Below, piece by piece: positions 6,380 through 56,099 of a DNA stretch of 64,000 bases (position 1 is its first letter; every line of letters begins with the position of its first letter). Both the position numbers and the translations under genes were made by a program. The notes under the pieces are model-generated. The model was not told the DNA's origin and searched no databases. It saw only the letters and a list, made by a program, of their open reading frames with translations. The stretch lies in NCBI RefSeq assembly GCF_988243305.1, contig NZ_OZ547136.1; one strand, 5' to 3'.

Positions 6380-6561
6380 TCCGTTTAACCCAACAGGGTT
6401 TAATGCTTTGTCGATAGCAGCTCTGTAGGTAGCGTCACCTTCGTATAACTCGTACGTTGTTGGACATGCACCAGGCTGGTCAGCCCGGGCTTTTGAGTCG
6501 CATTTAAGTGTCTGATTTACAGTGGCGGCGTTTGTGTCAGGACTTAGGTAATGACTCCAAC

Positions 6562-7065
6562 TTATTGATAGTGTTTTATGTTCAGATAATGCCCGATGAC
6601 TTTGTCATGCAGCTCCACCGATTTTGAGAACGACAGCGACTTCCGTCCCAGCCGTGCCAGGTGCTGCCTCAGATTCAGGTTATGCCGCTCAATTCGCTGC
6701 GTATATCGCTTGCTGATTACGTGCAGCTTTCCCTTCAGGCGGGATTCATACAGCGGCCAGCCATCCGCCATCCATATCACCACGTCAAAGGGTGACAGCA
6801 GGCTCATAAGACGCCCCAGCGTCGCCATAGTGCGTTCACCGAATACGTGCGCAACAACCGTCTTCCGGAGCCTGTCATACGCGTAAAACAGCCAGCGCTG
6901 GCGCGATTTAGCCCCGACATAGCCCCACTGTTCGTCCATTTCCGCGCAGACGATGACGTCACTGCCCGGCTGTATGCGCGAGGTTACCGACTGCGGCCTG
7001 AGTTTTTTAAGTGACGTAAAATCGTGTTGAGGCCAACGCCCATAATGCGGGCTGTTGCCCGGCAT
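6562..7065 (-). CDS. insB: IS1 InsB (expressed as InsAB' by frameshift)
   Basis: 167-aa IS1 transposase ORF overlapping insA. Confidence 0.9.
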
Positions 7066-7259
7066 CCAACGCCATTCATGGCCATATCAATGATTTTCTG
7101 GTGCGTACCGGGTTGAGAAGCGGTGTAAGTGAACTGCAGTTGCCATGTTTTACGGCAGTGAGAGCAGAGATAGCGCTGATGTCCGGCGGTGCTTTTGCCG
7201 TTACGCACCACCCCGTCAGTAGCTGAACAGGAGGGACAGCTGATAGAAACAGAAGCCAC
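6984..7259 (-). CDS. insA: IS1 InsA
   Basis: 91 aa, [23 protein letters not shown]… zinc-finger/HTH InsA. Confidence 0.9.
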
Positions 7260-7425
7260 TGGAGCACTTCAAAAACGCCATCATACACTAAATCAGTAAG
7301 TTGGCAGCATCACCTAAGTGCTTTTACGATGAATTTCATGATAACTCTCCTTATGACATTAATAAATGCGTTAATCTTAAATCTCACCCAGGTAATATAT
7401 ATCTGAAAATATTTTCAACAACACC

Positions 7426-32139: not shown

Positions 32140-34882
<2,743 letters not shown>

Positions 34883-35300
34883 CGTAAGTAAAATCAGCCA
34901 CCCACAGCTGGTCAGGACGTTCTGCCACGCACTGACGGTTTACGCGGTCACCTGTGGCAACGGTTTTCCGGCTGACGGTAGTGCGGACCTTTTTACCCCG
35001 GAGAACACCGGCAAGTCCCATAACCGCCATGAGGCGCGCCACTGTACATCTGGCCACCCTGATTCCTTCCCGTAACAACTGACGCCAGACTTTACGCACA
35101 CCGTACACCTGATGATTTTCATCGTATACGCGCTGTATCTCTCTCTTCAGCCAGTCATCGTGCTGCGCACGGGCACTGCGTTTATCCGGATGATGTCGCT
35201 GTTGCTGACAATGGTAATACGTTGACGGGGCAATATGCAGTTCGCTGCATACCGGTCCGACCCCGTACTGCTCACGCAGCTTATCCAGCAGTGGCATCAT
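34883..35300 (-). pseudogene. IS629 orfB, 5' exon portion
   Basis: [21 protein letters not shown]…QLWVADFTY then intron sequence. Confidence 0.8.
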
Positions 35301-36138: not shown

Positions 36139-37425
36139 TCAGGCTTTATTAGGTAAAGTATTTACCGAATGTGAAATCTTCACTGTCAGTGTAACAACTG
36201 CTGAACACAATAGCGTGGCTATCATAAAGATGAATGCACTGTTGTAACTTCCGTCGCTGCTTTGGATCAACCAGCCAATGACAGGGGCAGAAATAACCCC
36301 AGCCATCTGACCGCCAAAGTTAACGATACCTGATGCTCGCCCCATGATATTACTGGGAATAGTATCCATCAAAATGCCCCAGAACATTGCCATAGCGAAG
36401 AACATAAACAACGCTGAAACACATTGATAAACAACAGCCATATCCGCACTACTTACGCTGAAAGTCAAGTACAGGAACCCTGCAGCAATTACGGAAGTCA
36501 AGACATATAGTGTTTTACGTTGTGGTTTTAATTTATCTGAGCAATAGCCACCTAATAATGTCCCCCCAGCTCCAAATAGAAAGGGGATCGCAGCCATTAC
36601 GCCAGTTTTGGCCAATGAGAATTCACGAACAGTAATTAGATAACTTGGCAACCAAGTTGAAAAGCCCCAGAACGTAATATCAAACAAAAACCAAATGCAG
36701 GCCATCTGCCAAAGTACAGGCATCTTAAGTACATCTTTAAATGCAATATTACTTTTGCCTTGCCCCCCGTCCTGGTTATCTGATGCTAGCTCAACCAGAT
36801 CCTGCTGCGTTATTGCTGGATGATCTTTTGGATTATCACGGGTAAATAACCAGATACCCGCAGCAATAAATAAACCTGGTATACCCAATACGATGAAGAC
36901 CATGTGCCAGCCAAATGCACCGATAATGCTCGCCGCTACAACAACCGCCAGTGCTGGCCCTAAGGTGTTCACCGTAGACTGAATGGCTGTTGCGCGTCCT
37001 CGCTCTTTCGATGGAAAATAGGTCGAAATCATCTTCCATGAAGCTGACGGGAAACAACCTTCCCCTATACCAAAGAAGAAACGAACAATCAGCATTAACG
37101 GCAGAGCAAGTACCGCACCAGTAAGGCTGGTAAATATGGACCACCATGCAATACCAATGGCCATAATTTTCCTTGAGCCAAACTTATCGGCTAACATTCC
37201 ACCGGGAATCTGAAATGCAGCATAACCAATAAAAAAAGCACTAATAATTAAACCTTGTTGTGTTGTATCAAGATTTAAATCTTTGCCAATATAAGGTAAT
37301 GAAACACTCATGACCATTCTGTCGAGAAAAGAGAGTAACCATGCTAACCAAATTAAGGTCAAGACGGTATATCTTGCTTTCCAAAGTTTTGGTTTACCTA
37401 AAGGTAAAGATGTTTGTAGATTCAT
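36139..37425 (-). CDS. MFS transporter (428 aa)
   Basis: 12-TM-type hydrophobic profile; last gene of the sigma-54 operon. Confidence 0.85.
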   Translation of the reverse strand: MNLQTSLPLGKPKLWKARYTVLTLIWLAWLLSFLDRMVMSVSLPYIGKDLNLDTTQQGLIISAFFIGYAAFQIPGGMLADKFGSRKIMAIGIAWWSIFTSLTGAVLALPLMLIVRFFFGIGEGCFPSASWKMISTYFPSKERGRATAIQSTVNTLGPALAVVVAASIIGAFGWHMVFIVLGIPGLFIAAGIWLFTRDNPKDHPAITQQDLVELASDNQDGGQGKSNIAFKDVLKMPVLWQMACIWFLFDITFWGFSTWLPSYLITVREFSLAKTGVMAAIPFLFGAGGTLLGGYCSDKLKPQRKTLYVLTSVIAAGFLYLTFSVSSADMAVVYQCVSALFMFFAMAMFWGILMDTIPSNIMGRASGIVNFGGQMAGVISAPVIGWLIQSSDGSYNSAFIFMIATLLCSAVVTLTVKISHSVNTLPNKA

Positions 37426-37502
37426 TGTAATGTCCTTTGAGTGTAACTATCTATCGCGACTCTTTTGGTCGCGATAGATCAATAAGTATTTAACGTAATT
37501 TA

Positions 37503-39098
37503 TTAATATTCTTTTCTGATAACTTTACCGCTACAGGCATAACTTTCCGTACCATTAATTAAGGCGATACGTCCATTGACCATTACAAGTTCAATTCCTT
37601 CTGGATACTGATTTGGCTCTACAAATGTTCCCTTATCTGCAATGGTTTTGGGATCGAACATTACAATATCAGCCGCATACCCAACTTTAAGTAATCCCCT
37701 GTTTTGCAGACCTAATACTTCCGCAGGTTTGCCGGTCATTTTACGAATTGCATCCTCCCAACTTAGGCATCCCTCTTCACGCACATATTTGCCCAGTACA
37801 CGAGGAAAGGCTCCAAACACTCGAGGATGGGGTTTTCCTGCCCCCATTAAACCATCAGTACAGACGTTCTGCTCTGCACGACAGAGGAATTTAATAACGT
37901 GTTCTTCTGTCCCATAGAAATCAACCATTCCTACAGCGTTTTCTTCTTCAAGAAGCAAATCGAAAGTGGCGTTATAGGGATCTTTACCGCGTAATTCGCC
38001 TAACTGGACAAGATTCAAACCTACGGCATCCTGATTTTTGGCAGTTTTCACACTGGTGACAAAAATTTGGTCTAGACCAGCAAAGTCAATAAAGTTATCC
38101 CATCCTGGAATACCTTGCTGAATGTCGTCGATCATTTTTGCACGCAGTTCTGGCGAAGCTAGTCGTTTCAGCAATTTATCCGTTCCTCCGGAATGGACCC
38201 ACGGAGGTAGGATTACACCAAGCATAGTGCTACCTGCAACATACGGATATTGATCGTAAGAGATACGTATTCCCTCTTTCTGCGCCTGTTCCAACATGCC
38301 AAGCATTTGGTCAATAAGCCCCCAGTTTTTCTTCCCACATACTTTCATATGTGATATATGGAGCCACACACCACTAGCTTTGGCTATATCGATTAATTCT
38401 TGGGTTGAATTGATAATATCATCAGCTTCACTGCGCTGATGCACCACAAAGAGCCCATCATATTTCGCTGTGACTTTACATAATTCAATCAACTCAGCAG
38501 TATCGCCAAAGGCGCAGGGCATATAGATAAGCCCAGAGGAAAGACCAAATGCCCCAGCTTTTAACTCCCGCTCAAGGATTTCACACATCTTTGCGACGTC
38601 TTCACGGGTAGAAGGGCGACCATCAAGTCCCATCGCTTCCATACGTACATTACCATGCGGAACCAGATACGCTAGATTTGTTGCTGGATGGTGAGATTCC
38701 AATAGGTTTAGGTATCCATCGGTATTTTTATATTTCCAGTCTATTTTATCGGTATCACCGTCAAGTCCAGCAATATTTTTACGCCAAGCTGGAATATATT
38801 TCTCAGGTAGTGGAGCCAATGCGACACCATCCTGTCCAAGTAACTCAGTAGTAATACCTTGACGTATTTTTGCCGATAGTTCAGGATTTATAATGGCCGA
38901 TAAATCAGAATGTGTGTGTGTATCAATAAAACCAGGGCAAATAATTTTTCCGCTTGCATCAATAAATTGTTCATTCTTACCAACATCAACGTGGCCGATG
39001 GAAATAATATATCCATCATCAACTACCACGTCAGTAATTATGCCCGGACTTCCTGTTCCATCAATAACATTTCCATTTTTAAAAATTGTTTTCATCAT
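37503..39098 (-). CDS. Amidohydrolase, N-acyl-D-amino-acid deacylase (D-aminoacylase) family
   Basis: GFIDTHTH metal-binding motif and family-like N-terminus; start taken at MMKTIF with GGAG RBS. Confidence 0.8.
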   Translation of the reverse strand: MMKTIFKNGNVIDGTGSPGIITDVVVDDGYIISIGHVDVGKNEQFIDASGKIICPGFIDTHTHSDLSAIINPELSAKIRQGITTELLGQDGVALAPLPEKYIPAWRKNIAGLDGDTDKIDWKYKNTDGYLNLLESHHPATNLAYLVPHGNVRMEAMGLDGRPSTREDVAKMCEILERELKAGAFGLSSGLIYMPCAFGDTAELIELCKVTAKYDGLFVVHQRSEADDIINSTQELIDIAKASGVWLHISHMKVCGKKNWGLIDQMLGMLEQAQKEGIRISYDQYPYVAGSTMLGVILPPWVHSGGTDKLLKRLASPELRAKMIDDIQQGIPGWDNFIDFAGLDQIFVTSVKTAKNQDAVGLNLVQLGELRGKDPYNATFDLLLEEENAVGMVDFYGTEEHVIKFLCRAEQNVCTDGLMGAGKPHPRVFGAFPRVLGKYVREEGCLSWEDAIRKMTGKPAEVLGLQNRGLLKVGYAADIVMFDPKTIADKGTFVEPNQYPEGIELVMVNGRIALINGTESYACSGKVIRKEY

Positions 39099-39161
39099 AA
39101 TTCTCCATGACGATGTCACATGGTGACACCGCCTGTAAGGGAAGAGGTTTTATCTTTAAAT

Positions 39162-40346
39162 TTAACGGAGATATAGTGTCTGAATAATGCTGTAATAACC
39201 ACTGGCCGAACCGGTTAATTGCTCGATCTCAATGTACTCATCAATGGTGTGCGCCAAGTTTTCCCGTGAAGGTCCAAACCCAATAGTTTTGATCCCCGCT
39301 TCACCAGCATAGTGGCTTCCGTTTGTACAAAATGAGTACTGCGTGATGGTCGGTGAAAACCCTGCCTTACGAATACCAACCAACGCAGCTTGTACAAATT
39401 CATCAGATTCGTCAAACACCCACCCAGGGAAGAAACGCTCACCTTCAATAGTTGCTCCTGTGTAGCAGGACTCTTGGCCTACTGCGTACGAGACCCGCCC
39501 TTTAAACTGCGGATCGAGGATTGCGAACTCTGCCAGTACACGTTCCAGAGGTGCAATAACGTTTTCTTTCGTTTCTCCGACAAGCAAACGGCGATCGTAA
39601 GTTGCACGGCAGTAATCCGGCACTACTGATGCTCCCGGATATGGCGATGATTTAATGTCTGTTAACTCTAAAATTCCGGGGCCAAGTATCGGATGCATTG
39701 GTGGTACAATGGTACGAATTTTGTCAATTAATTGTGCCATTTTGTAGACAGCATTTATTCCTGCCTGTGGATTGGCTGAGTGAGCTGGTTTCCCAAATGT
39801 TTCGACAACAATTTCAGCGCGTCCACGCTGACCGATTTTCAGGTTTAATTCGGAAGCTTCACCGATAATTACGTAATCAGGTTTAAAACGTTCACTGACC
39901 AAGCGTGCCGCAACACCTTCAAAACACTCTTCATGGACAATACAGGCTACGTAAATTTTGCCGGAAAAATTACGCTGGTAATCCTGACCAAAAAAACCAA
40001 CGGCGGAGATCATAGCCGCAACAGCTCCCTTCATGTCGGTTGCCCCCCGACCATAAATTTTGCCTTCGTCAATATCACCGCCATATGGATTCCGAGTCCA
40101 CATATCTTCGTTTACAGGCACAGTATCAATATGCCCATCCAAAACGAGAGTTTTCCCTGGCTGATTGCCAATAATACCACCAATAATATTGCCATACTTA
40201 TCGATATGAATATCGTCAAACTGGTAATACTGCATCATATCTTTTATGGCATTCACTACATCCCCTTCCTGACCGGAATAGCTTTTTTGTTGGATCAATG
40301 TCTGACAATTTTTAATAACTTCTTTATAACGACTTGCAGATAACAT
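39162..40346 (-). CDS. M20-family metallopeptidase/deacylase (YgeY/ArgE/DapE-like)
   Basis: LDGHIDTVP and GRGATDMKG motifs. Confidence 0.8.
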   Translation of the reverse strand: MLSASRYKEVIKNCQTLIQQKSYSGQEGDVVNAIKDMMQYYQFDDIHIDKYGNIIGGIIGNQPGKTLVLDGHIDTVPVNEDMWTRNPYGGDIDEGKIYGRGATDMKGAVAAMISAVGFFGQDYQRNFSGKIYVACIVHEECFEGVAARLVSERFKPDYVIIGEASELNLKIGQRGRAEIVVETFGKPAHSANPQAGINAVYKMAQLIDKIRTIVPPMHPILGPGILELTDIKSSPYPGASVVPDYCRATYDRRLLVGETKENVIAPLERVLAEFAILDPQFKGRVSYAVGQESCYTGATIEGERFFPGWVFDESDEFVQAALVGIRKAGFSPTITQYSFCTNGSHYAGEAGIKTIGFGPSRENLAHTIDEYIEIEQLTGSASGYYSIIQTLYLR

Positions 40347-40378
40347 GGTGTTCCTCCGTTATTATTTAAATTAGAAAA

Positions 40379-41593
40379 TTACTGCTGAAGTACCGGATAC
40401 TGAGTCCCCCAGACAATATTGCGATATGATTCTGGGTCAGTGTCACCTTCAGTGCTGATTAGCAAAACACGGGAATGTGAATCCAGCCCCAACTGTTCAC
40501 GGGTTTGCCTAAATGTAGGGGAGGTCATCAGTAACGCCAGAAGCCCTGTGGTTACTGCCCCTGACTCTCCAGAAATAATCTGCGGATCTCCTGCTAACGG
40601 ATTTCCCAAAATACGCATACCCAACATTGCAACCTCGTCAGGACAGGAGGCAAAGGCTGTAGCATAGTCACGTAGCAGCTTCCAGCCGATACTGTTAGCC
40701 TCGCCACAAGCCAGTCCTGCCATGAGTGTCTGCAAATCCCCCCCTACTGCCACGGCATTTCCATCTTTCGCCAAGGCTGAGCGGTAGAGGCAATCGGCAA
40801 TTAATGCTTCTACAACGATTACTTTTGGACGATTATCCCCCCAAGCAGCAGTCACCATTCCCTGGACCATACCCGCAAACGAACCAACCCCCGCTTGGAC
40901 AAAGATATGTGTTGGTGCTACCTGATGGAGTTGAGCCATAGCCTCCAGCATCAACGTGCTATAGCCCTGCATGATCCATAGAGGAATTTTTTCATACCCT
41001 TCCCAAGCGGTGTCCTGAACAACAATCCAGCCGGATTTATCTGCCTGCTCTGCGGTCATTCGAACAGCATCGTCATAGTTCATATTGACAATTTCAGCCG
41101 TAGCACCTTCATTGCGAATTGATGACAGGCGTTGTTGCGAAGACCCCTTTGGCATATAAACTACTGCATTTTGCTTTAGCTGACGCGCCATCCACGCTAC
41201 TCCCCGCCCGTGGTTACCGTCAGTAGTAGTAGCAAAGGTAACTGTTTTCAGATAATGGCGCACATCGTCACTAGTCATGATATCAAACGACAATTCATCA
41301 ATCTCTTTCCCTAGTAATTCTGCGATATGACATGCCATGGCATAGGCGCCACCCAGCACTTTGAAGGCTTTTAGGCCAAAACGCTGAGACTCATCTTTGA
41401 GATAGATCTTTTTTATCCCTAATTTTTGTGAAAGCGCAGGTAATGTATAGAGCGGCGTTGGCTCGTAGCCTGGTATTGTCCGATGAAAATTCAATGCTTT
41501 TACCAGCTCATTGTGACTAAATGAAGCTAGTGGTGCGCTAGGTTGCTGAGTAAATTGTGTCTGGTTAATAAAAAAGGATATTTTTTCCTGCAT
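40379..41593 (-). CDS. PLP-dependent diaminopropionate ammonia-lyase-like enzyme (DpaL/YgeX family)
   Basis: Family-level resemblance to YgeX-type ammonia-lyases; first gene of the operon. Confidence 0.75.
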   Translation of the reverse strand: MQEKISFFINQTQFTQQPSAPLASFSHNELVKALNFHRTIPGYEPTPLYTLPALSQKLGIKKIYLKDESQRFGLKAFKVLGGAYAMACHIAELLGKEIDELSFDIMTSDDVRHYLKTVTFATTTDGNHGRGVAWMARQLKQNAVVYMPKGSSQQRLSSIRNEGATAEIVNMNYDDAVRMTAEQADKSGWIVVQDTAWEGYEKIPLWIMQGYSTLMLEAMAQLHQVAPTHIFVQAGVGSFAGMVQGMVTAAWGDNRPKVIVVEALIADCLYRSALAKDGNAVAVGGDLQTLMAGLACGEANSIGWKLLRDYATAFASCPDEVAMLGMRILGNPLAGDPQIISGESGAVTTGLLALLMTSPTFRQTREQLGLDSHSRVLLISTEGDTDPESYRNIVWGTQYPVLQQ

Positions 41594-41675
41594 GATAAGA
41601 CCTCATTGTACTGGTATCTCGCACCCTGTAATCAGAGAAATCCAAAGATGCCTTCTGTATGACTATTCACTAAAA

Positions 41676-41691
41676 AGCAAAATGCGTACCA
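41676..41691 (-). promoter_or_regulatory. Candidate sigma-54 (-24/-12) promoter for the dpaL-like operon
   Basis: Minus strand reads TGGTAC-GCATT-TTGCT (GG-N10-GC spacing) about 85 bp upstream of the dpaL-like start; sigma-54 activator encoded divergently. Confidence 0.5.
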
Positions 41692-41973
41692 GTTTTTTAT
41701 TAGAGTTAGTAAAAAGTAACATATATTTCTTTAACCTTTTCATTTCAATGAATTAGGAAGTCATTGCGTCATAATGAATCCCCCTCCCTAGTATTGGCCT
41801 TATTTCAATGCCTGATAAATTCTCATTAATGAGAATTTATGTGATCAATCAAAAGAAAATAATAAAAACACAAATAAAACATATAGATATATTGATCTTT
41901 TTCAAGTAAATTTTTCCTAATATCATATAATTTCTCATTTTTCTGAGAATTTTATACTGACTGGAGGAGAACC

Positions 41974-43719
41974 ATGATTTCAGTACTGAGAAACATTCAG
42001 GATGATATATGTAATTATGCCGATGCTATCTCTGGCATAATCGGAACTGATGTAGAAATCATTGATGAGTCATTAATGCGCATAGCTGGTACAGGTCAAT
42101 ACAGGTATATGCTCAATGAGAGTGTGGTAAAAAATGGTTACATTTATCGGCATGTATTACAGGTACGAAAAACAGTTCTGATCACAAATCCAGGAGAACA
42201 TCCTCTCTGCCAGTTATGTGAGAAAAACCATTATTGCTCGGAAATGTTAGATTTGAACACACCCATTTTTCTCAATGAGCGTGTCATCGGAGTCATTGGA
42301 ATTATTTGCTCTACCCAGACACAGCGTAAAATCTTGTTGAACCAGATTGATAAATTTATTACCTTTATTGAGCAAATTGCTGCGATGATTTCCAGTAAAG
42401 TCTTCGAATGTCTGGAACGCCTGCGGGCCCAAGAAACTCTCAGTACATTTCGTCGATTGATTGATGCGATGGATCGCGGTGTTGTAGCTATTGATGGTAA
42501 GGGCCGAATCTGGCACGCTAACAACTCAGCCGATCGCATACTTAACCGCAAGGTTCAAGGTATTACGTTAACGATTGAAACAACCGGGGACATTCTATAT
42601 GGAGATGAAGAAGCATGGTTGACGCTGGAAGGAGAAAGATACCATGTGTTGTGCAAACAAATTTCTCTTTCCTCATTAGATAATGATCGACTCACCATGA
42701 TTATCTTTCGTGATGCACATGACTATCTGAGCACAATAGTTTATCCTTACGAATCTGATGCTCAAGTGCGATTAATTGGACATTCACCACTAATGGAACA
42801 ACTCAGAAGCACCGTTAGAAAAATCGCCAGTAGTTGTGCCAGCGTACTGATCACCGGAGAAAGTGGCTCAGGTAAAGAAGTTGTGGCATTTGCTATTCAT
42901 CAGAATAGTCCACGTAAATCCGCTCCTTTTGTAACAATCAACTGCGCTGCAATCCCAGAGCAACTGCTGGAAAGCGAGCTATTTGGCTACGTGAAGGGGG
43001 CATTTAGTGGGGCGAATCCTAAAGGACGTATAGGTAAATTTGAACTGGCCAATGGGGGAAGTCTCTTTCTCGATGAGATCGGAGATATGCCGCTCCATCT
43101 GCAGGCCAAGCTGCTTAGAGTTCTTCAGGAAAAAAACATTACCCGCGTTGGCTCTAATAATATTATCAATATTGATGTGCGCATTATTGCTGCGACCAAC
43201 AAAAACATCCGTGAAATGGTTGAGAGTAATCAGTTTCGAGAAGACCTTTATTATCGCCTGAATGTGGTTCCTCTAGTAATTCCTTCTTTACGGGAACGAC
43301 GGACTGATATTGCCCTCCTTGCACAATATTTTGCTGATGAGTTCTCTGAAAGCTATCAACGTCCAGTGAAAAAACTCCCCGATGATATAATTAACCATCT
43401 TTACGCTTGGCACTGGCCTGGTAACATCCGTGAATTACGTAATGTCATTGAGTATATTTTTGTTATGCGTGGTGAAACTACTGATATCAACGTCAGCCAT
43501 CTTCCCCCTTATCTGCTCAATGTAGTGGACAACAGCAAAACTGTTATGACAATCAACACCAAGCAGCTACTGAGTCAGGGAAGACAAGCGGAAAGGAGGG
43601 CAATTGAAACTGCATTACAACGATATAGCCCAAGTGGAGAGGGGAAAAAACAAGCTGCCGCTGAATTAGGAATAAGTATTGCTACACTATACCGAAAGAT
43701 AAAACAATATGGTTTATAG
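41974..43719 (+). CDS. Sigma-54-dependent transcriptional activator (YgeV-like)
   Basis: AAA+ Walker [15 protein letters not shown] and ESELFGY sigma-54 interaction motifs, C-terminal HTH; GGAGGAG RBS. Confidence 0.85.
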
Positions 43720-43948
43720 GCGAATTTTCTTTATCACACAATATTTAGATAAGCAAATTGAGTAATTATTCTGTAAAGCATTCAGCGAATGCCTGTTATG
43801 TCACAAAAATTATTTACAGATCACATAAGTCATTTTCAAATGGCTTTGACTCTGGAAAAATAAGGTGTGCACTACTGTACGGGGTGAGCAACACTGGTGA
43901 TGGCGGGGTATTGTTTCATGAAATGCTAAATAACTGCTCCTAATGCCG

Positions 43949-44835
43949 CTACACTTTAGCCAGCCCATGTTTTCCACCGGGAAATGGGCTGACGGTATCC
44001 ATAAAGTGACGAACCTTTTTCAACAACTGCCACATTGAACGGCACTGGTGATTTCGGGTTACTGTCTCATGAAGCGCCTGCCATAACCGTTCGATATGAT
44101 TGACCCACGGCGAGTAAACCGGCTGATAAATTATCCTGAACTTCGAGTTTGCTTTCAGCCAGCGCAACGTTTCACGGCTTTTGTGGATGATGTAGTTATC
44201 GACAATGAGTGTAATCGTTTTTGCCCGCCGGTATGTCGCTTTCAGGTGTTTTAACAGACTGATAAATAAGGACGAACCTTTACTGTTCCCACCAACGTAG
44301 CTGACTTTTCCCGTACCGCTGTGCAGCGCACCGGCAAGATAGTACTTTTCATTCTGACCCGGCGTGACAACGCGCTTTTGCTGCCCACGTAGCTGCCAGC
44401 CTGCACCAATTTTGGGATTGAGGTGAATATCCACTTCATCTTCGTAAAACACGGGGTTTTCCGCACAGCATTTCGCCAGTGCTTCATGAATAGCGACCAT
44501 TTTTTCTTCTTTGTGTGGGTCACGGATACGCAGTGTCGGCGCAGTTCTCCGCCATACCAGTCCGGCAGCAGGCAACCAGCGGCATATACACTCGGCAGGT
44601 AATGATTTGTCCATTAACACCCGACTGCGTGAACCAGTTAATCCAGGGTCCAACATAGGAACGGACTCAGCAGAGCATTCTAGCAACATCGCTGACACGG
44701 TGGAGCCATTGCAGTATCACCATAGCAGTCAGTCTGCGGGCATAATTTTTATCGTGTGTTTTGTGGATAGCTTTCTGTATCAGGTGTCGTTCGTTACAGG
44801 GAATTGGCTCTATGATTGGCATAGTTCAGTCCGGT
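43949..44835 (-). pseudogene. IS630-family transposase, decayed (frameshift and internal deletion)
   Basis: N-terminal MPIIEPIPCNERHLIQKAIHKTHDKNYARRL… in one frame, DDE part (…TITLIVDNYIIHKS…) in another, about 150 bp missing. Confidence 0.75.
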
Positions 44836-47179
44836 TGGTGATTTGTTTTAATTTGTCGATTGAACAAACGCACAATCCGGGCTGAGTTCCCTCAAAGTGA
44901 TCTACTATTCCGTGCAGCTATTTAGATCAAGGCTAAGGCAGGAATTTTATGTAATTAATGCTAGAGGTAAACGTTGTGGGTAAATGGTTTGCATGGTTAA
45001 TATTTAACCATAAGGAATAAGAGGTATTGCAGAATTAATTCCGTATAGTTATTCTTCTTGTAAGAAGATTTTTGGGTGCTAGTGATAAATTACAGAGCCT
45101 ATAGAAATGTAAAGTAACAAATCACAGAATAAGGATACAATAGCATAATTTATTGTCACACAAAGCCCCAAGACATTCTGTAATAAAAGGAATTTCCATA
45201 AGAAGAACCATTGACAATAATATGAGCACCACCATTGTAGAGATATTTATTTATGACTGAAAAGGAACTCCAAAATTTGGCTATTTCTATATATGAAAGG
45301 CAACGAGAGAAGTTATCACGTGAGACAGAGTGTAATAAATCTACCTCAATAAGATTTGCCCTAGAAGATTTCCTAAAGAATGCTCCGAAACGTATGCGAT
45401 CTGCGCGTGCTCGCCCCCCAGGGTAATAAATGTCGCAAACTCTGATAATATTTTTATGAAAACAAGCATATTTACAAACGTAAACTAATGATTCTAATTT
45501 GACAGAATATAAACTATAAGTATTAATAAATACCATACGGAGCAGAAAAAAATATCAAAATGAGTTAATTTGATTAGAAAGATTTATCCCATTTATAAAG
45601 ATAATTGTAGAAAGATTCATTGACTCTAAGAGCAAATAAGGAGAGGGCATACAGGATATAACTAGTACTCATAATAAAAATCCCTCTACCGATATAAGTA
45701 AAATTTATTTCCCAGACGAGTTTTTAATAATACATATCAGAAACAGTGCTAAACGATGGGCCGTAATCCTCATGAATAGTAACTCATGGTTATTTTACAC
45801 TGGATTATCGGTGGGGTAATTCTGATAATAGAAACACCTGAAAAACTAAAATCATTAATTTTAAAATACAACCATATACTCATCAAACTCTCGATACACC
45901 ATTCTTCTTTTAAAGTAAAGAAAAACTCTATCTGTGCTTATGTTCCACAACATAAATAGAATAAAAAAATTAAGGATTTATATATTAAGAGTGAATTTAC
46001 ATTTTAGGCTAACTTTAGTACATATTAATTATTGTTTCTTATTAATTTTAAACTTCAAAAGCTATATCAAGGGTTGCCACTTCTATCTGCGACTAACAGC
46101 ATATCTATCAGCAACAATTGATTAATTCCAGCACCTCATGTCGGCGCGATCTGGTGGAAAAGCCATTCCACCAAAACAACCCCAAGCGCTGGCACGTTGG
46201 GGAGATCTGCACTGTGAACCAGCTGGCAATGAGCCGCTTTATTATCGAGTTCGGTGACCGCCTAGACGGTCACTTCTGAGAAAAGGCATTTACACAGAAT
46301 CCTAAACCGGCTCGCAGGTTTCCCCCACTCCCCATCCGCACTCAAGTTCAGACGGCGAATAACATAGCTAATCAGCTCATTACGGAATGACTACCATCCA
46401 GATAGTGTGCCGCAGTTTAAGGTTCGGTCAACCGCTTTTTAACCATTCAGCATTGCCTACAATACAAATAAGGAGCCTTATATTATGCCTAATCTCTGTA
46501 TGCTGCATAGTGCCGGGTGCCTCCCGGTGAGTCCAGCCTGGTGTCTCTGAACCCGCATAGAAAGGATTAGGGTAATATAAAAACAAACACCTGTTACTGA
46601 TATGCTCCGCCGCTTAGGGGAGTTCACCATACATTTTTATTTTTAACAAAAAAGCTCAAGGCGACAATAATAAATACTATAAAATGTGAGCAGCATAACA
46701 TTTTAACTTAGTAACTAATATTCACTAAACTTACCAATTCACATACGCCCCACGGCATGGCAAAGCTTCGTTACGTTAGTTTATACCACATAGGTATTAT
46801 TACCAAACTAAATAATCACTTTACGCTCTGTATTTTGCCTGTTTTCACTGCGGTTTTTCTCAATACCCCGTCCAGAATAACGTTAACACATTATTAACTT
46901 AAATCCGGAGAACATGATGATGACTGGATTCAAACACACTTAACATGAATATCCTCTATCCATTAAAATAACTGTCATTGAGCCGGTTGAAAAAACGAGA
47001 TGAACTATAAACAGATCTAGCAGTGGCATGGCTGGCGAATGGCGTTATCAATCCACTGCCTTTACTGAGTGCTGAATATCCCTTCACTGACCTGGAAGAG
47101 GTGCTACGTTTCGCCGGTGATAAAACCCAGGCATCAAAAGTCCAGCTTGTTTTCTTAGAGATAAATAAAGGAATAATAC

Positions 47180-47863
47180 AATGAACAAGCAATTTTCACT
47201 GGCAGAAAAAATATCTTGATTACCGGATCAGCACAGGGCATTGGCTTTTTACTGGCAACCGGTCTGGGTAAATATGGCGCACAAATAATTATTAATAATA
47301 TTACTGCCGAACGCGCATAACTTGCTGTAGAAAAACTCCACCAGGTGGGTATTCAGGCCGTTGCCGCACCTTTTAATGTTACTCATAAACATGAAATTGA
47401 TGCCGCCGTTGAACATATCGAAAAGGACATCGGCCCCATTGATGTGCTGGTGAATAACGCCGGTATCCAGCGCCGTCATCCTTTTACTGAGTTCCCTGAA
47501 CAAGAGTGGAATGATGTGATCGCAGTAAACCAGACCGCCGTGTTCCTGGTGTCGCAAGCGGTAACCCGTCACATGGTTGAACGCAAGGCAGGTAAAGTTA
47601 TTAATATTTGCTCGATGCAAAGCGAACTGGGACGTGGCACCATCACCCCTTATGCCGCATCGAAAGGGGCGGTAAAAATGCTCACCCGCGGCATGTGCGT
47701 CGAGCTGGCGTGCCACAATATTCAGGTCAACGGTATTGCGCCGGGCTATTTCAAAACAGAAATGACTAAAGCACTGGTTGAGGACGAAGCCTTCACCGCC
47801 TGGTTGTGCAAGAACAAATTTCCATTGCGGGTTTTTATGGGCTGGAGATTGGCAGGCAAATGA
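47180..47863 (+). pseudogene. idnO: Gluconate 5-dehydrogenase idnO pseudogene (frameshift, in-frame stop, 3' truncation)
   Basis: MNKQFSLAEK… then frameshift; …ITGSAQGIGFLLATGLGKYGAQII… and a 172-aa ORF match IdnO; C-terminus diverges. Confidence 0.8.
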
Positions 47864-47865
47864 TC

Positions 47866-48003
47866 CCAAGCCTCGCCAGCGTAATTACTCCCCGTTTTGA
47901 TATTGGTCGGATGGCCGCCCAAATGTTGCTGAGCAAAATTAAGAATAACGATCACAACACTGTTGACCTCGGGTATCAGATTTATCACTGTAACACGCTT
48001 TAG
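47866..48003 (+). pseudogene. LacI-family regulator 3' fragment (possibly idnR)
   Basis: …SLASVITPRFDIGRMAAQMLL… is a LacI-type C-terminal signature; follows idnO as in the idnDOTR operon. Confidence 0.45.
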
Positions 48004-48745
48004 GTTATTTTCTCTTCATTACACGTATTCTCTTTGCCGGACGTTGCCTATACTCCAAGCAGGAAACTGGAGGAAATCTCATGAGCGCCTCCCTGTTAAT
48101 TGCCCGCATGCCAATACGGTGGGGTGGGATATCTTTGGCGAGAAAGGCCATCCGGTGCGGGCAACGGTTTCAGACCTAGGGCCACTGTTGCTGGCGTGGC
48201 TGTTGAATCTCAACGATGTGCAGTCTGGCGTGCTGGATATCATTTTCCGCATTGCTGATGATCAGGGATTGTTGCTGCTCGACTTTAAAGATCTGCGGGC
48301 AATTACCCAGTACATCGGCGATAACGCCAAATCCTTCCAGAATCAGTACGGTAATATCAGTAGCGCATCGGTTGGTGCCATCCCGCGCGGATTACTGTCG
48401 CTGGAGCAACAAGGCGCAGAGCATTTCTTTGGCGAGCCGATGCTGGATATCAAAGACTGGATGCGCACCGATACCAACGGTAAAGGCGTTATTAATATCC
48501 TCAGCGCCGAGAAGCTTTATCAGATGCCGAAACTGTATGCAGCCAGTCTGCTGTGGATGCTCTCGGAGCTGTATGAACAATTGCCGGAAGCGGGCGATCT
48601 GGAGAAACCAAAACTGGTGTTTTTCTTCGACGAAGCGCATCTGCTGTTTAACGATGCAGCACTGGTACTGCTGGATAAGATTGAGCAGGTGATAAGGCTT
48701 ATTCGCTCAAAAGGCGTTGTCGTCAGAACGGCTTCCCCTGTGTGA
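47990..48745 (+). pseudogene. yjgR: yjgR internal fragment (DUF853 ATPase)
   Basis: …[26 protein letters not shown]…[18 protein letters not shown]… matches the middle of YjgR; both ends missing. Confidence 0.7.
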
Positions 48746-49321: not shown

Positions 49322-50503
49322 TCAGGTCTGCTCAGAAAGTGAATCAATGTAGTCAGCGTACCATTGCATCATTTCACGGCGACCATCGAGATACTGTGCG
49401 TGGTTATAGGTACCGCGCATGATGTTTTTATCAACATGGGCAAGCTGGAGTTCAATCCAGGCAGAGCTGAAATCATGGTCATGGAGAATGGTACTGAAAG
49501 TATGCCGAAAACCATGAGCTGTAGTGAATGTATGCCAGCCAACTTGTTGAAGAAACTCATTGATGCAACCACGGCTACGAGGTTGATTACCCCTGTATAC
49601 ACCAGGAATAACCAGATCTGAGTTACGGGGATTTGTGATTATTTTTATATCTTTCAATAACATTTGAGCCTGATGAGAAAGAGGAACAACATGCGGCCTC
49701 CGCATTTTCATTCTCTCTTTTGGGATTACCCAGAGGGCATTGGTAAAATCAATTTCATCCCAAGTAGCCAGGCGTAATTCTCCCGTTCGAACAGCAGTCA
49801 GAACCAGTATCCGCGTTACCAGAGACATAAAATTTCCTGAAACTTTCATTTGGTACATGAAAGCTCCTAACTGTTCTTCAGATAGCATCCGTCTCTGCTG
49901 TTTTTCAGGATGCAGAACAACACTGCTGAGAGTCGATGCTGGGTTAATAGTGGCGCGCCCCGTCGCAATGGCATAATCAAATATTTGAGAACAGAGCTGA
50001 CGAGTCTTACGTAACGCTTCAAGTTTGCCATTCCTTTCAATAACCCTCAGTGCATTCAATATTTCCAAGGGGCGAATATCAGCCACAGGACGCTTCCCTA
50101 GCGTGGGATTAATATGATTCTCGAATCTTGCACGCTGGTCCGCTAAATAACCCGCAGTCCAACGACAAGCCATATGTGTGAACAACTCTTCTGCAAGAGT
50201 ACAAAATGTGCATGCAATACTTTCTCTTAGTGCATGTTTACTCGCCTGTTTTTCATATGAAGGATCTTTTCCTTCAGCCAGGAGTTTACGTGCGTCATCC
50301 CGTTTCTGACGCGCCAGAGCCAGTGATATGCCTGGATAGACACCAATCACCAATTTCTTTTCTTTACCCGCAAATCGATACTTCAGATTCCAGTAACGAG
50401 CGCCAGATTTCTTGATAAGAAGGTAAAGTCCTTGACCATCAGAAAGTTTGTAATCCTTGTCAGCGGGTTTGGCCGACTCAATTTGTCGAACAGTAAGTGG
50501 CAT
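49322..50503 (-). CDS. int: Tyrosine integrase, P4-type
   Basis: 393 aa; N-terminal …KLSDGQGLYLLIKKSGARYWNLKYRFAGKEK… and C-terminal HGFRHTF…LAHVD…Y catalytic signature; 177 bp from the right junction. Confidence 0.9.
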   Translation of the reverse strand: MPLTVRQIESAKPADKDYKLSDGQGLYLLIKKSGARYWNLKYRFAGKEKKLVIGVYPGISLALARQKRDDARKLLAEGKDPSYEKQASKHALRESIACTFCTLAEELFTHMACRWTAGYLADQRARFENHINPTLGKRPVADIRPLEILNALRVIERNGKLEALRKTRQLCSQIFDYAIATGRATINPASTLSSVVLHPEKQQRRMLSEEQLGAFMYQMKVSGNFMSLVTRILVLTAVRTGELRLATWDEIDFTNALWVIPKERMKMRRPHVVPLSHQAQMLLKDIKIITNPRNSDLVIPGVYRGNQPRSRGCINEFLQQVGWHTFTTAHGFRHTFSTILHDHDFSSAWIELQLAHVDKNIMRGTYNHAQYLDGRREMMQWYADYIDSLSEQT

Positions 50504-54450: not shown

Positions 54451-55267
54451 TTAGCTTGTCGCTAACTGTACTTGCGGTTCTTCATCTTTAACTTTGATAA
54501 GCGTCCACAGCGCAATGGCGCCAATAATGTCAAAGAAAGCCAGGGCAATAAAGAACGGCGCGAAGCCGATAATGTGAACGAATGCCCCGATAAACAGGTT
54601 GAAAATCAACTGACCGCTCCACGCACAGGCTCCTGCCATACCCACTGCGGTAGCTACTTCGTCTTTTTTGAACAGATCGCCACCCAGAGTTGCTGCTACA
54701 GTAGAAAGACATTGATGCGAGAACGCGCCAATACTAATCAGTAATACGGCAATGTAGGGATTTTCGACAATACTCACCAGGCCAATCGTCATCATAATGA
54801 CGGCTGCAATAGTGAAGGTAATTCTTCGTGAGTTAATTAAACTCACGCCGCGATCGTGGAAGAACTTCGCGACAAAACCACTGGCTAAACAGCCGAGATC
54901 GCCCAGCAGGAAAGGCAGCCAGACGAACATGGCAATTTCTTTCAGGCTAAAATGCAGCGTTTCGACGAAGAAAATCGGCACCCAGAAGTTAATGGTTCCC
55001 CATGCCGGGTCTGCGAGAAAACGCGCGATGCCAATCCCCCAGAAATTACGTTGGCTGAGGATATGCTTGATTGACGTTTTTTCTTTCTTATCTGTTTTAA
55101 GATGCTGTTCTTGTCCTGATTCAATATAGTGGCGCTCTTCATCAGAAAGGCGTTTGGCATCTTTCGGATCTTTATAACAAAAGAACCAAAATAAAGCCGC
55201 GAGCAAAGCAAGGCTACCTGAAACAATAAACGCAAATTGCCAGCTATGAAACATAATGCACCAGGCA
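54451..55267 (-). pseudogene. MFS transporter gene, 5'-truncated by IS1 (C-terminal about 276 codons remain)
   Basis: ORF with multiple TM segments runs directly into the IS1 end at 55268 without a start codon. Confidence 0.7.
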
Positions 55268-55282
55268 GGTAATGACTCCAAC

Positions 55283-55786
55283 TTATTGATAGTGTTTTAT
55301 GTTCAGATAATGCCCGATGACTTTGTCATGCAGCTCCACCGATTTTGAGAACGACAGCGACTTCCGTCCCAGCCGTGCCAGGTGCTGCCTCAGATTCAGG
55401 TTATGCCGCTCAATTCGCTGCGTATATCGCTTGCTGATTACGTGCAGCTTTCCCTTCAGGCGGGATTCATACAGCGGCCAGCCATCCGTCATCCATATCA
55501 CCACGTCAAAGGGTGACAGCAGGCTCATAAGACGCCCCAGCGTCGCCATAGTGCGTTCACCGAATACGTGCGCAACAACCGTCTTCCGGAGACTGTCATA
55601 CGCGTAAAACAGCCAGCGCTGGCGCGATTTAGCCCCGACATAGCCCCACTGTTCGTCCATTTCCGCGCAGACGATGACGTCACTGCCCGGCTGTATGCGC
55701 GAGGTTACCGACTGCGGCCTGAGTTTTTTAAGTGACGTAAAATCGTGTTGAGGCCAACGCCCATAATGCGTGCAGTTGCCCGGCAT
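55283..55786 (-). CDS. insB: IS1 InsB
   Basis: One amino-acid difference from the first copy (…VIWMTDGW…). Confidence 0.9.
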
Positions 55787-55980
55787 CCAACGCCATTCAT
55801 GGCCATATCAATGATTTTCTGGTGCGTACCGGGTTGAGAAGCGGTGTAAGTGAACTGCAGTTGCCATGTTTTACGGCAGTGAGAGCAGAGATAGCGCTGA
55901 TGTCCGGCAGTGCTTTTGCCGTTACGCACCACCCCGTCAGTAGCTGAACAGGAGGGACAGCTGATAGAAACAGAAGCCAC
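55705..55980 (-). CDS. insA: IS1 InsA
   Basis: Identical to the InsA of the first copy. Confidence 0.9.
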
Positions 55981-56099
55981 TGGAGCACCTCAAAAACACC
56001 ATCATACACTAAATCAGTAAGTTGGCAGCATCACCCTGGAAGCCAGACGTAAGGTCATCAAAGAGACAATCCTTAGCTGGCTTTTGGTTGACCCTTCAT

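Follow-up and report, generated by a model that had tools for sequence, protein, structure and literature searches.

The window, that is, the whole stretch of 64,000 nucleotides analyzed here, contains on its minus strand a relic of an IS630-family insertion sequence, which spans positions 43926–44925 including the flanking C-TA and TA-G. The gene for a sigma-54 activator (41974–43719) is convergent with the relic, which is inserted 207 bp downstream of it. This gene heads a cluster that also encodes a diaminopropionate ammonia-lyase, a YgeY-family hydrolase, an amidohydrolase, and an MFS transporter. The catabolic cluster (36139–43719) is low in GC, its activator is of the GAF/PAS type, and its gene content resembles that of the ygeV-ygeY region.

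From ~36 to 46.2 kb, the GC content is 39–47%, against 51–58% in the flanking core DNA. At the megablast level, a search of 5,426 complete E. coli genomes gave no match to the segment of ~36–46 kb, including the catabolic cluster. At 50–64 kb, the core is 99–99.5% identical to E. coli. The earlier note had placed the IS630 copy in an island. Based on the low GC content, the absence from the complete E. coli genomes, and the E. coli-like flanking core, this placement is sensible, and it is reasonable to consider that the surrounding 36–46 kb behaves as a horizontally acquired island. The IS content and the absence of the island from complete E. coli genomes make the host chromosome look like that of an IS-rich lineage of the E. 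coli/Shigella type. The presence of the relic indicates that the catabolic cluster around it belongs to a segment that is rich in mobile DNA and probably acquired horizontally.

Directly to the right of the relic, ~1.3 kb (44926–46200) is very AT-rich, with ~31% GC at 45–46 kb. No ORF with a family match is found in 44926–46200, and a 126-aa ORF at 45156–45536 has no NCBIfam match. Further right, positions 46464–46662 (minus strand) match the Rfam family of the STnc100 sRNA with 103 bits (gathering score 47), and this match overlaps a repeat of ~55 bp at 46498–46556. Sister assemblies contain ~1.04 kb of extra sequence between two copies of the ~55-bp repeat (L003 10576–11613), and the window represents the short allele. 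Two sister assemblies also have an IS5-like insertion at the repeat region linked to STnc100.

Fragments of the idn operon and yjgR occupy 47020–48724. The end of idnD, most of idnO, the end of idnR, and parts of yjgR are left, while tRNA-leuX, ahr, idnK, and idnT are absent. The idn operon and yjgR are neighbors of tRNA-leuX and an integrase in E. coli. The fragmentary state of this region suggests IS-associated deletions.

Other mobile DNA is seen elsewhere in the window. Two direct repeats of 769 bp, the size of IS1, are 99.1% identical to each other; they lie at 6546–7314 and 55267–56035, ~48.7 kb apart, and bracket most of the window. A group II intron reverse transcriptase/maturase (TIGR04416, 1.4e-100) is encoded at 32703–34226, a fragment of an IS3-family transposase at 34818–35300, and an integrase-domain protein at 49322–50503, all on the minus strand.

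Boundaries and Target Site

The boundaries of the relic are given by the pattern of its terminal repeats and by end-to-end alignments to intact copies. At the transposase-distal end (43926–43937, plus strand), the terminal inverted repeat reads CTAAATAACTGC, and the putative duplicated TA corresponds to 43927–43928 after C. At the transposase-proximal end (44914–44925), it reads CTAAATAGCTGC on the minus strand, and the putative duplicated TA (44923–44924) is followed by G. The two repeats agree at 11 of the 12 positions. In a pattern search of the whole window, the terminal repeat CTAAATA(A/G)CTGC is seen only at 43926 and 44925, in inverted orientation. By this search, the window holds a single copy of the element. 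Between the TA pairs, the element body is 994 bp long (43929–44922), which is 159 bp shorter than the canonical IS630 of Shigella sonnei measured in the same way (1153 bp). The span of 43949–44835 proposed in the earlier note covers the ORF remnants, but falls short of the whole element as defined by the terminal repeats.

The intact copies aligned are those of E. coli pCFSAN004181P (L001 1513–2670), a plasmid copy labelled ISSpu2 (L002 1507–2665), E. coli 2013C-3033 (L012), and the canonical IS630 of S. sonnei pSS_046 (L015 478–1636). The nearby Klebsiella/E. coli plasmid type carries the NCBI label "ISSpu2 family". Homology to the intact copies runs from 43926 to 44925, and the outer 11–12 bp at both ends of the window copy are the same as theirs. 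The arrangement C-TA … TA-G bounds all copies examined, at six unrelated loci (the window and five others), and the sequences outside are unrelated to one another.

These flanks are as expected from an insertion into the TA of CTAG with a duplication of TA, the putative duplication being read from the flanks themselves. A duplication of TA is known in the IS630 family (PMC2170065). A preference of IS630 for CTAG is stated in the title of Tenzen and Ohtsubo (1991), which appears in the reference list of the same paper. The predicted empty site reads TTTCATGAAATGCTAGATCAAGGCTAAGG. The left flank followed by CTA, which would fit a filled or an empty site, had no match in the GTDB species-representative genomes, and no empty site was found there.

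Family Assignment and Lesions of the Transposase Gene

The minus strand of the relic contains two overlapping ORFs in different frames, at 44822–44667 (51 aa, ending with TGA) and 44698–43949 (249 aa), in agreement with the earlier description of a transposase in two frames. The 249-aa ORF matches Pfam DDE_3 (6.7e-24) and the NCBIfam model NF033545, "IS630 family transposase", with 168.6 bits (cut-off 100); the stitched translation reaches 175 bits against NF033545. At the nucleotide level, annotated IS630-family elements that match the relic with 80–95% identity occur in 693 E. coli records and 1,079 plasmid records, and the full-length identity of the relic to annotated intact elements (~1158 bp) is 88–90%. 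Because of the DDE_3 match, the NF033545 score above the cut-off, and the 88–95% nucleotide identity to annotated IS630-family elements, the family assignment is secure, and the match is far above chance. In the translations, the motifs DEVDIHL, IVDNYIIH, and NHIERLW, in which we place the catalytic D, D, and E residues, are kept as in intact relatives, and the second D is separated from E by 35 residues.

Lesions were mapped by alignment to at least four intact copies. All close relatives encode the transposase in one 343-aa ORF. In these intact relatives, the N-terminal pair of helix-turn-helix domains would bind the terminal repeats, and the C-terminal DDE domain would cut and paste the element. 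In the window copy, the N-terminal transposase fragment (44667–44822, minus strand) has 51 codons and corresponds to the first helix-turn-helix region. It ends at a TGA (44669–44667) at codon 52, where all relatives have a Cys codon (TGC or TGT). Within the first 69 codons of the transposase, 16 amino acid changes are private to this copy. A 2-bp deletion between 44609 and 44608 (minus strand), GGAC^AAATC compared with GGACTGAAATC in relatives, shifts the frame at about codon 71. It is followed by the junction of an in-frame 156-bp (52-codon) deletion (44576–44588, minus strand), placed at ~44588/44587 with an ambiguity of ~10 bp. The catalytic DDE-domain part (43949–44569, minus strand), which is the homologous part of the 249-aa ORF, is open to the native stop …GLAKV*. 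Outside the coding region, 1 bp is deleted in the untranslated leader near 44869.

With the 52-codon deletion, residues ~82–133 are lost, and with them the greater part of the second helix-turn-helix. On an intact relative, these residues fall into HTH_32 (57–136) and the start of HTH_33 (108–157), which together make up the second helix-turn-helix. In ISY100, tight binding to the terminal repeats depends on the N-terminal domain with its two helix-turn-helix motifs (PMC2170065). ISY100 and other Tc1/mariner elements serve here as a mechanistic reference; the window copy, known here from its sequence, is only distantly related to ISY100. Since codon 52 is a stop, the frame shifts at about codon 71, and 52 codons of the second helix-turn-helix are lost, a full transposase cannot be made, and so, judging from the sequence, this copy cannot transpose autonomously.

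The DDE_3 and NF033545 matches, the alignments, and the three transposase lesions bear out the claim of the earlier note that a decayed IS630-family copy lies here. Its proposal of an alignment with IS630 references has been followed; the alignment maps the deletion and both termini. The internal loss, estimated there as about 150 bp, is 158 bp in the alignment, composed of the 156-bp block and the separate 2-bp deletion. That note had given the split frame and the internal loss as the damage to the gene. Both are real, but the 156-bp loss is in frame, it is the 2-bp deletion that separates the two frames, and a nonsense codon has to be added. The possibility that an intact single ORF appears after sequence correction fails: six independent NCBI assemblies with this locus agree at every base of 43700–45200, so the lesions are not sequencing errors. 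The insertion is fixed in every related assembly retrieved.

A full single-ORF transposase is thus not present, with the codon-52 stop, the 2-bp frameshift, and a 52-codon deletion over HTH_32/HTH_33. The copy is a member of the IS630 family by descent, yet a pseudogene. A dead IS630-family copy is a kind of feature already known, and what is added here are its exact boundaries, the list of its lesions, and its chimeric origin. Taken as a whole, the feature is very probably a non-autonomous, chimeric relic of an IS630-family (Tc1/mariner-like, DDE) insertion sequence on the minus strand.

Chimeric Structure and Unequal Decay

Informative sites divide the relic into two parts. From 44925 to 44573, they are of the canonical IS630 type, and from 44570 to 43926, they are of the type represented by the chromosomal element of E. 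coli 2013C-3033 (L012, type H58; WP_106894605.1). The informative-site track and sliding identity place the switch point at 44570–44573 (minus strand). This is a few bases downstream of the junction of the 156-bp deletion, and the junction itself is of the IS630 type. In sliding comparisons, identity to canonical IS630 is 85–96% in the 5′ part and 73–88% in the 3′ part. Identity to the 2013C-3033 type is 62–85% in the 5′ part and 93–98% in the 3′ part. Overall, the 5′ third is ~89% identical to the canonical Shigella IS630, and the 3′ two-thirds are 94–95% identical to the other IS630-family type. Read from these sites, the copy is a recombinant of two IS630 types.

The two types are represented by intact elements. 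The IS630 of S. sonnei (pSS_046, NC_007385.1; WP_005137849.1, 343 aa) shares its terminal repeats (CTAAATAGCTGC…) and CTA…TAG flanks with the window copy, and gene order and orientation are alike. At nearly every informative site in its 5′ third (44925 to ~44573), the window copy agrees with this type. Unlike the S. sonnei element, the window copy contains the codon-52 stop, the 2-bp frameshift, and the 52-codon deletion. The element of pCFSAN004181P (L001; WP_065224993.1) is grouped with the 2013C-3033 type, and both are intact, with ~1158 bp. The part of the window copy that resembles this type (44570–43926) comprises the DDE domain and the distal end, and the frame is kept there.

Decay is unequal between the two parts. 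Substitutions private to the window copy number 31 in the 5′ ~340 nt, in contrast to 12 in the 3′ ~660 nt. Among the 5′ private changes, 21 of 30 are GC-to-AT. GC-to-AT bias is the usual signature of unconstrained bacterial DNA. Against the nearest relative, dN/dS is 0.70 for the N-terminal part, which also has the stop and the frameshift, and 0.09–0.11 for the C-terminal part. The latter is on a par with the dN/dS between two intact copies (0.084). When the 3′ changes are polarized with six relatives, the strictly private ones (~1.5%) are ~2 nonsynonymous to 1 synonymous, which is neutral. Some of the "private" changes in the 5′ part could belong to an unsampled IS630 subtype instead of decay, because, in both collections searched, no 5′ match exceeds ~89% identity.

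The earlier note saw in this copy a marker of older IS activity. This is apt for the 5′ third, where ~9% private, GC-to-AT-biased changes are found together with a dN/dS of ~0.7, the nonsense codon, and the frameshift. It does not describe a uniformly old insertion, as the 3′ two-thirds are far less decayed and of the other IS630 subtype, and the copy is a recombinant.

Three steps are likely to have generated the relic. A canonical-IS630-like copy would have lost 156 bp between two 9-bp direct repeats, and the deleted copy would then have decayed neutrally. Later, gene conversion or homologous recombination would have exchanged its 3′ two-thirds for those of another IS630-family type that was intact at the time. 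Such a replacement by a then-functional type would leave the catalytic half still in an open frame. We infer the order of these events, as well as the 3′ replacement by recombination, from the distribution of types and private changes. The relic is now most likely inert DNA, which may still act as a substrate for homologous recombination.

Sequence Exchange in a Sister Assembly

A second case of exchange is seen in the sister assembly L008 (GCA_028130695.1). The 8 kb to the left of the relic are ~0.45% different from the window, and only two differences are found in the first ~120 bp of the relic. From 44048 inward, the divergence is ~20%. The relic of L008 (7953–8460) corresponds to 43926–44421 of the window; its interior is replaced by a heavily decayed IS630-family sequence with stops and frameshifts, and it is cut off near 44421 beside an IS3-family orfA. 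Neutral decay from a shared insertion was considered as the cause of the interior divergence (16–20%) and rejected, because the flank and the first ~120 bp are near-identical. The near-identical flank and first ~120 bp, followed by a divergent interior, mark instead a recombination breakpoint inside the relic in this very close relative.

Recombination and rearrangement via IS copies are well known in Shigella and E. coli genomes. The chimera in the window and the breakpoint in L008 are small, concrete cases of dead IS copies that exchange sequences and mediate rearrangements.

The 156-bp Deletion and Possible Mobilization

In full-length IS630, the block that is deleted sits between two imperfect direct repeats, CG(T/C)CGCTGG, which encode two RRW motifs. 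Their contexts are …GRARRW|PFEH… and …GTVRRW|LPSAG…, and it is the second repeat that remains at the junction in the window. The exact position of the junction is ambiguous because it lies between these repeats.

The same deleted form is seen at one other locus. The relic of E. coli RM10740 (L010 1890–2894) shows the identical 156-bp in-frame gap, and its junction is bounded by the repeats as well. Like the window copy, it is a pseudogene whose two ends are preserved. It occupies another genomic site, is flanked by other sequences with its own CTA/TAG, and is 84% identical to the window copy overall. Its secondary lesions are its own, a TAG at codon 16 and deletions of 2 bp and 1 bp elsewhere, and its internal patch of the other subtype is different from that of the window copy. 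This is a single locus, common to six pig-associated strains (RM10740 and five others) whose flanks are 100% identical. Among the best 30 of 1,420 E. coli records, the remaining matches are full-length across the deletion region; the deleted form is represented by two loci in all, the window and this one. A degenerate pattern for the junction, validated by its matches to the window, its orthologues, and L010, was found in none of 100,044 species-representative genomes. The repeat-bounded deletion at two loci is a minor curiosity for the curation of IS630 variants. In E. coli Nissle 1917 (L011 1721–2836), a pseudogene of canonical-type IS630 has a different internal deletion of 43 bp, an independent route of decay.

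The shared deletion could be due to descent with mobilization by the transposase of another copy, to gene conversion, or to recurrence at the repeats. Because both ends and the TA flanks are intact, mobilization of the window copy by a transposase supplied by another copy is possible on structural grounds. The statement of the earlier note that the copy is probably immobile therefore stands for autonomous movement, but not as full immobility.

It might be considered further that the 156-bp-deleted form, having retained both ends without the DNA-binding module, is a propagating, non-autonomous derivative, similar to a MITE precursor, which is moved by the full-length IS630 transposase, and that the window copy could still move. 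The occurrence of the same deletion and junction type at the unrelated locus of L010 with its own CTA/TAG flanks, and the terminal 11–12 bp shared with intact copies, would fit this idea. It is nevertheless unlikely. Only the two loci carry the deletion in the matches listed from more than 1,400 E. coli records, the junction is absent from the species-representative genomes scanned, and the window copy has one position and one sequence in all related assemblies. Besides, recurrence between short direct repeats or gene conversion explains the sharing equally well. The preferred reading is still that of an inert, non-autonomous relic.

The Open Frame of the Catalytic Part

The DDE-only ORF is 249 aa long when read mechanically and 235 aa from the ATG at 44656. 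It can be asked whether this ORF is under selection, either because an N-terminally truncated transposase made from it dampens the transposition of IS630 or because it has been domesticated. Its 194 C-terminal codons are unbroken, with a dN/dS of ~0.1 against intact relatives, and a 235-aa DDE_3 protein is annotated here in one assembly. However, the low pairwise dN/dS reflects the divergence among once-active IS lineages. The private changes are few and, at ~2 nonsynonymous to 1 synonymous, look like brief neutral drift; at this low number of substitutions, the frame would be expected to stay open by chance. The ORF begins with out-of-frame junk, no convincing promoter stands above shuffled controls, and the matching region in L008 contains stops and frameshifts. 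Rfam, promoter, and terminator scans found nothing inside the relic. Selection on the C-terminal ORF was rejected on the small number and neutral appearance of the private changes, and its probability is considered extremely low.

That the relic is still active in either way, as IS630Δ156 moved by full-length IS630 or through the DDE-only ORF as a truncated transposase that modulates IS630 in IS-rich genomes of the Shigella type, is very unlikely.

A programmed ribosomal frameshift or an artefact of sequencing or assembly, with a transposase that is really intact, has a negligible probability and was rejected on the lesion alignment and the six identical assemblies: some IS families, including a few IS630-family entries, use frameshifting and single-base errors are common in homopolymers, but all close relatives have a single 343-aa ORF, the frame change coincides with the 2-bp deletion relative to them, an in-frame TGA precedes it and a 52-codon gap follows it, and no slippery heptamer is visible in the overlap of 44698–44667.

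For annotation, one IS630-family pseudogene or relic at 43926–44925 fits this locus, rather than two small genes.
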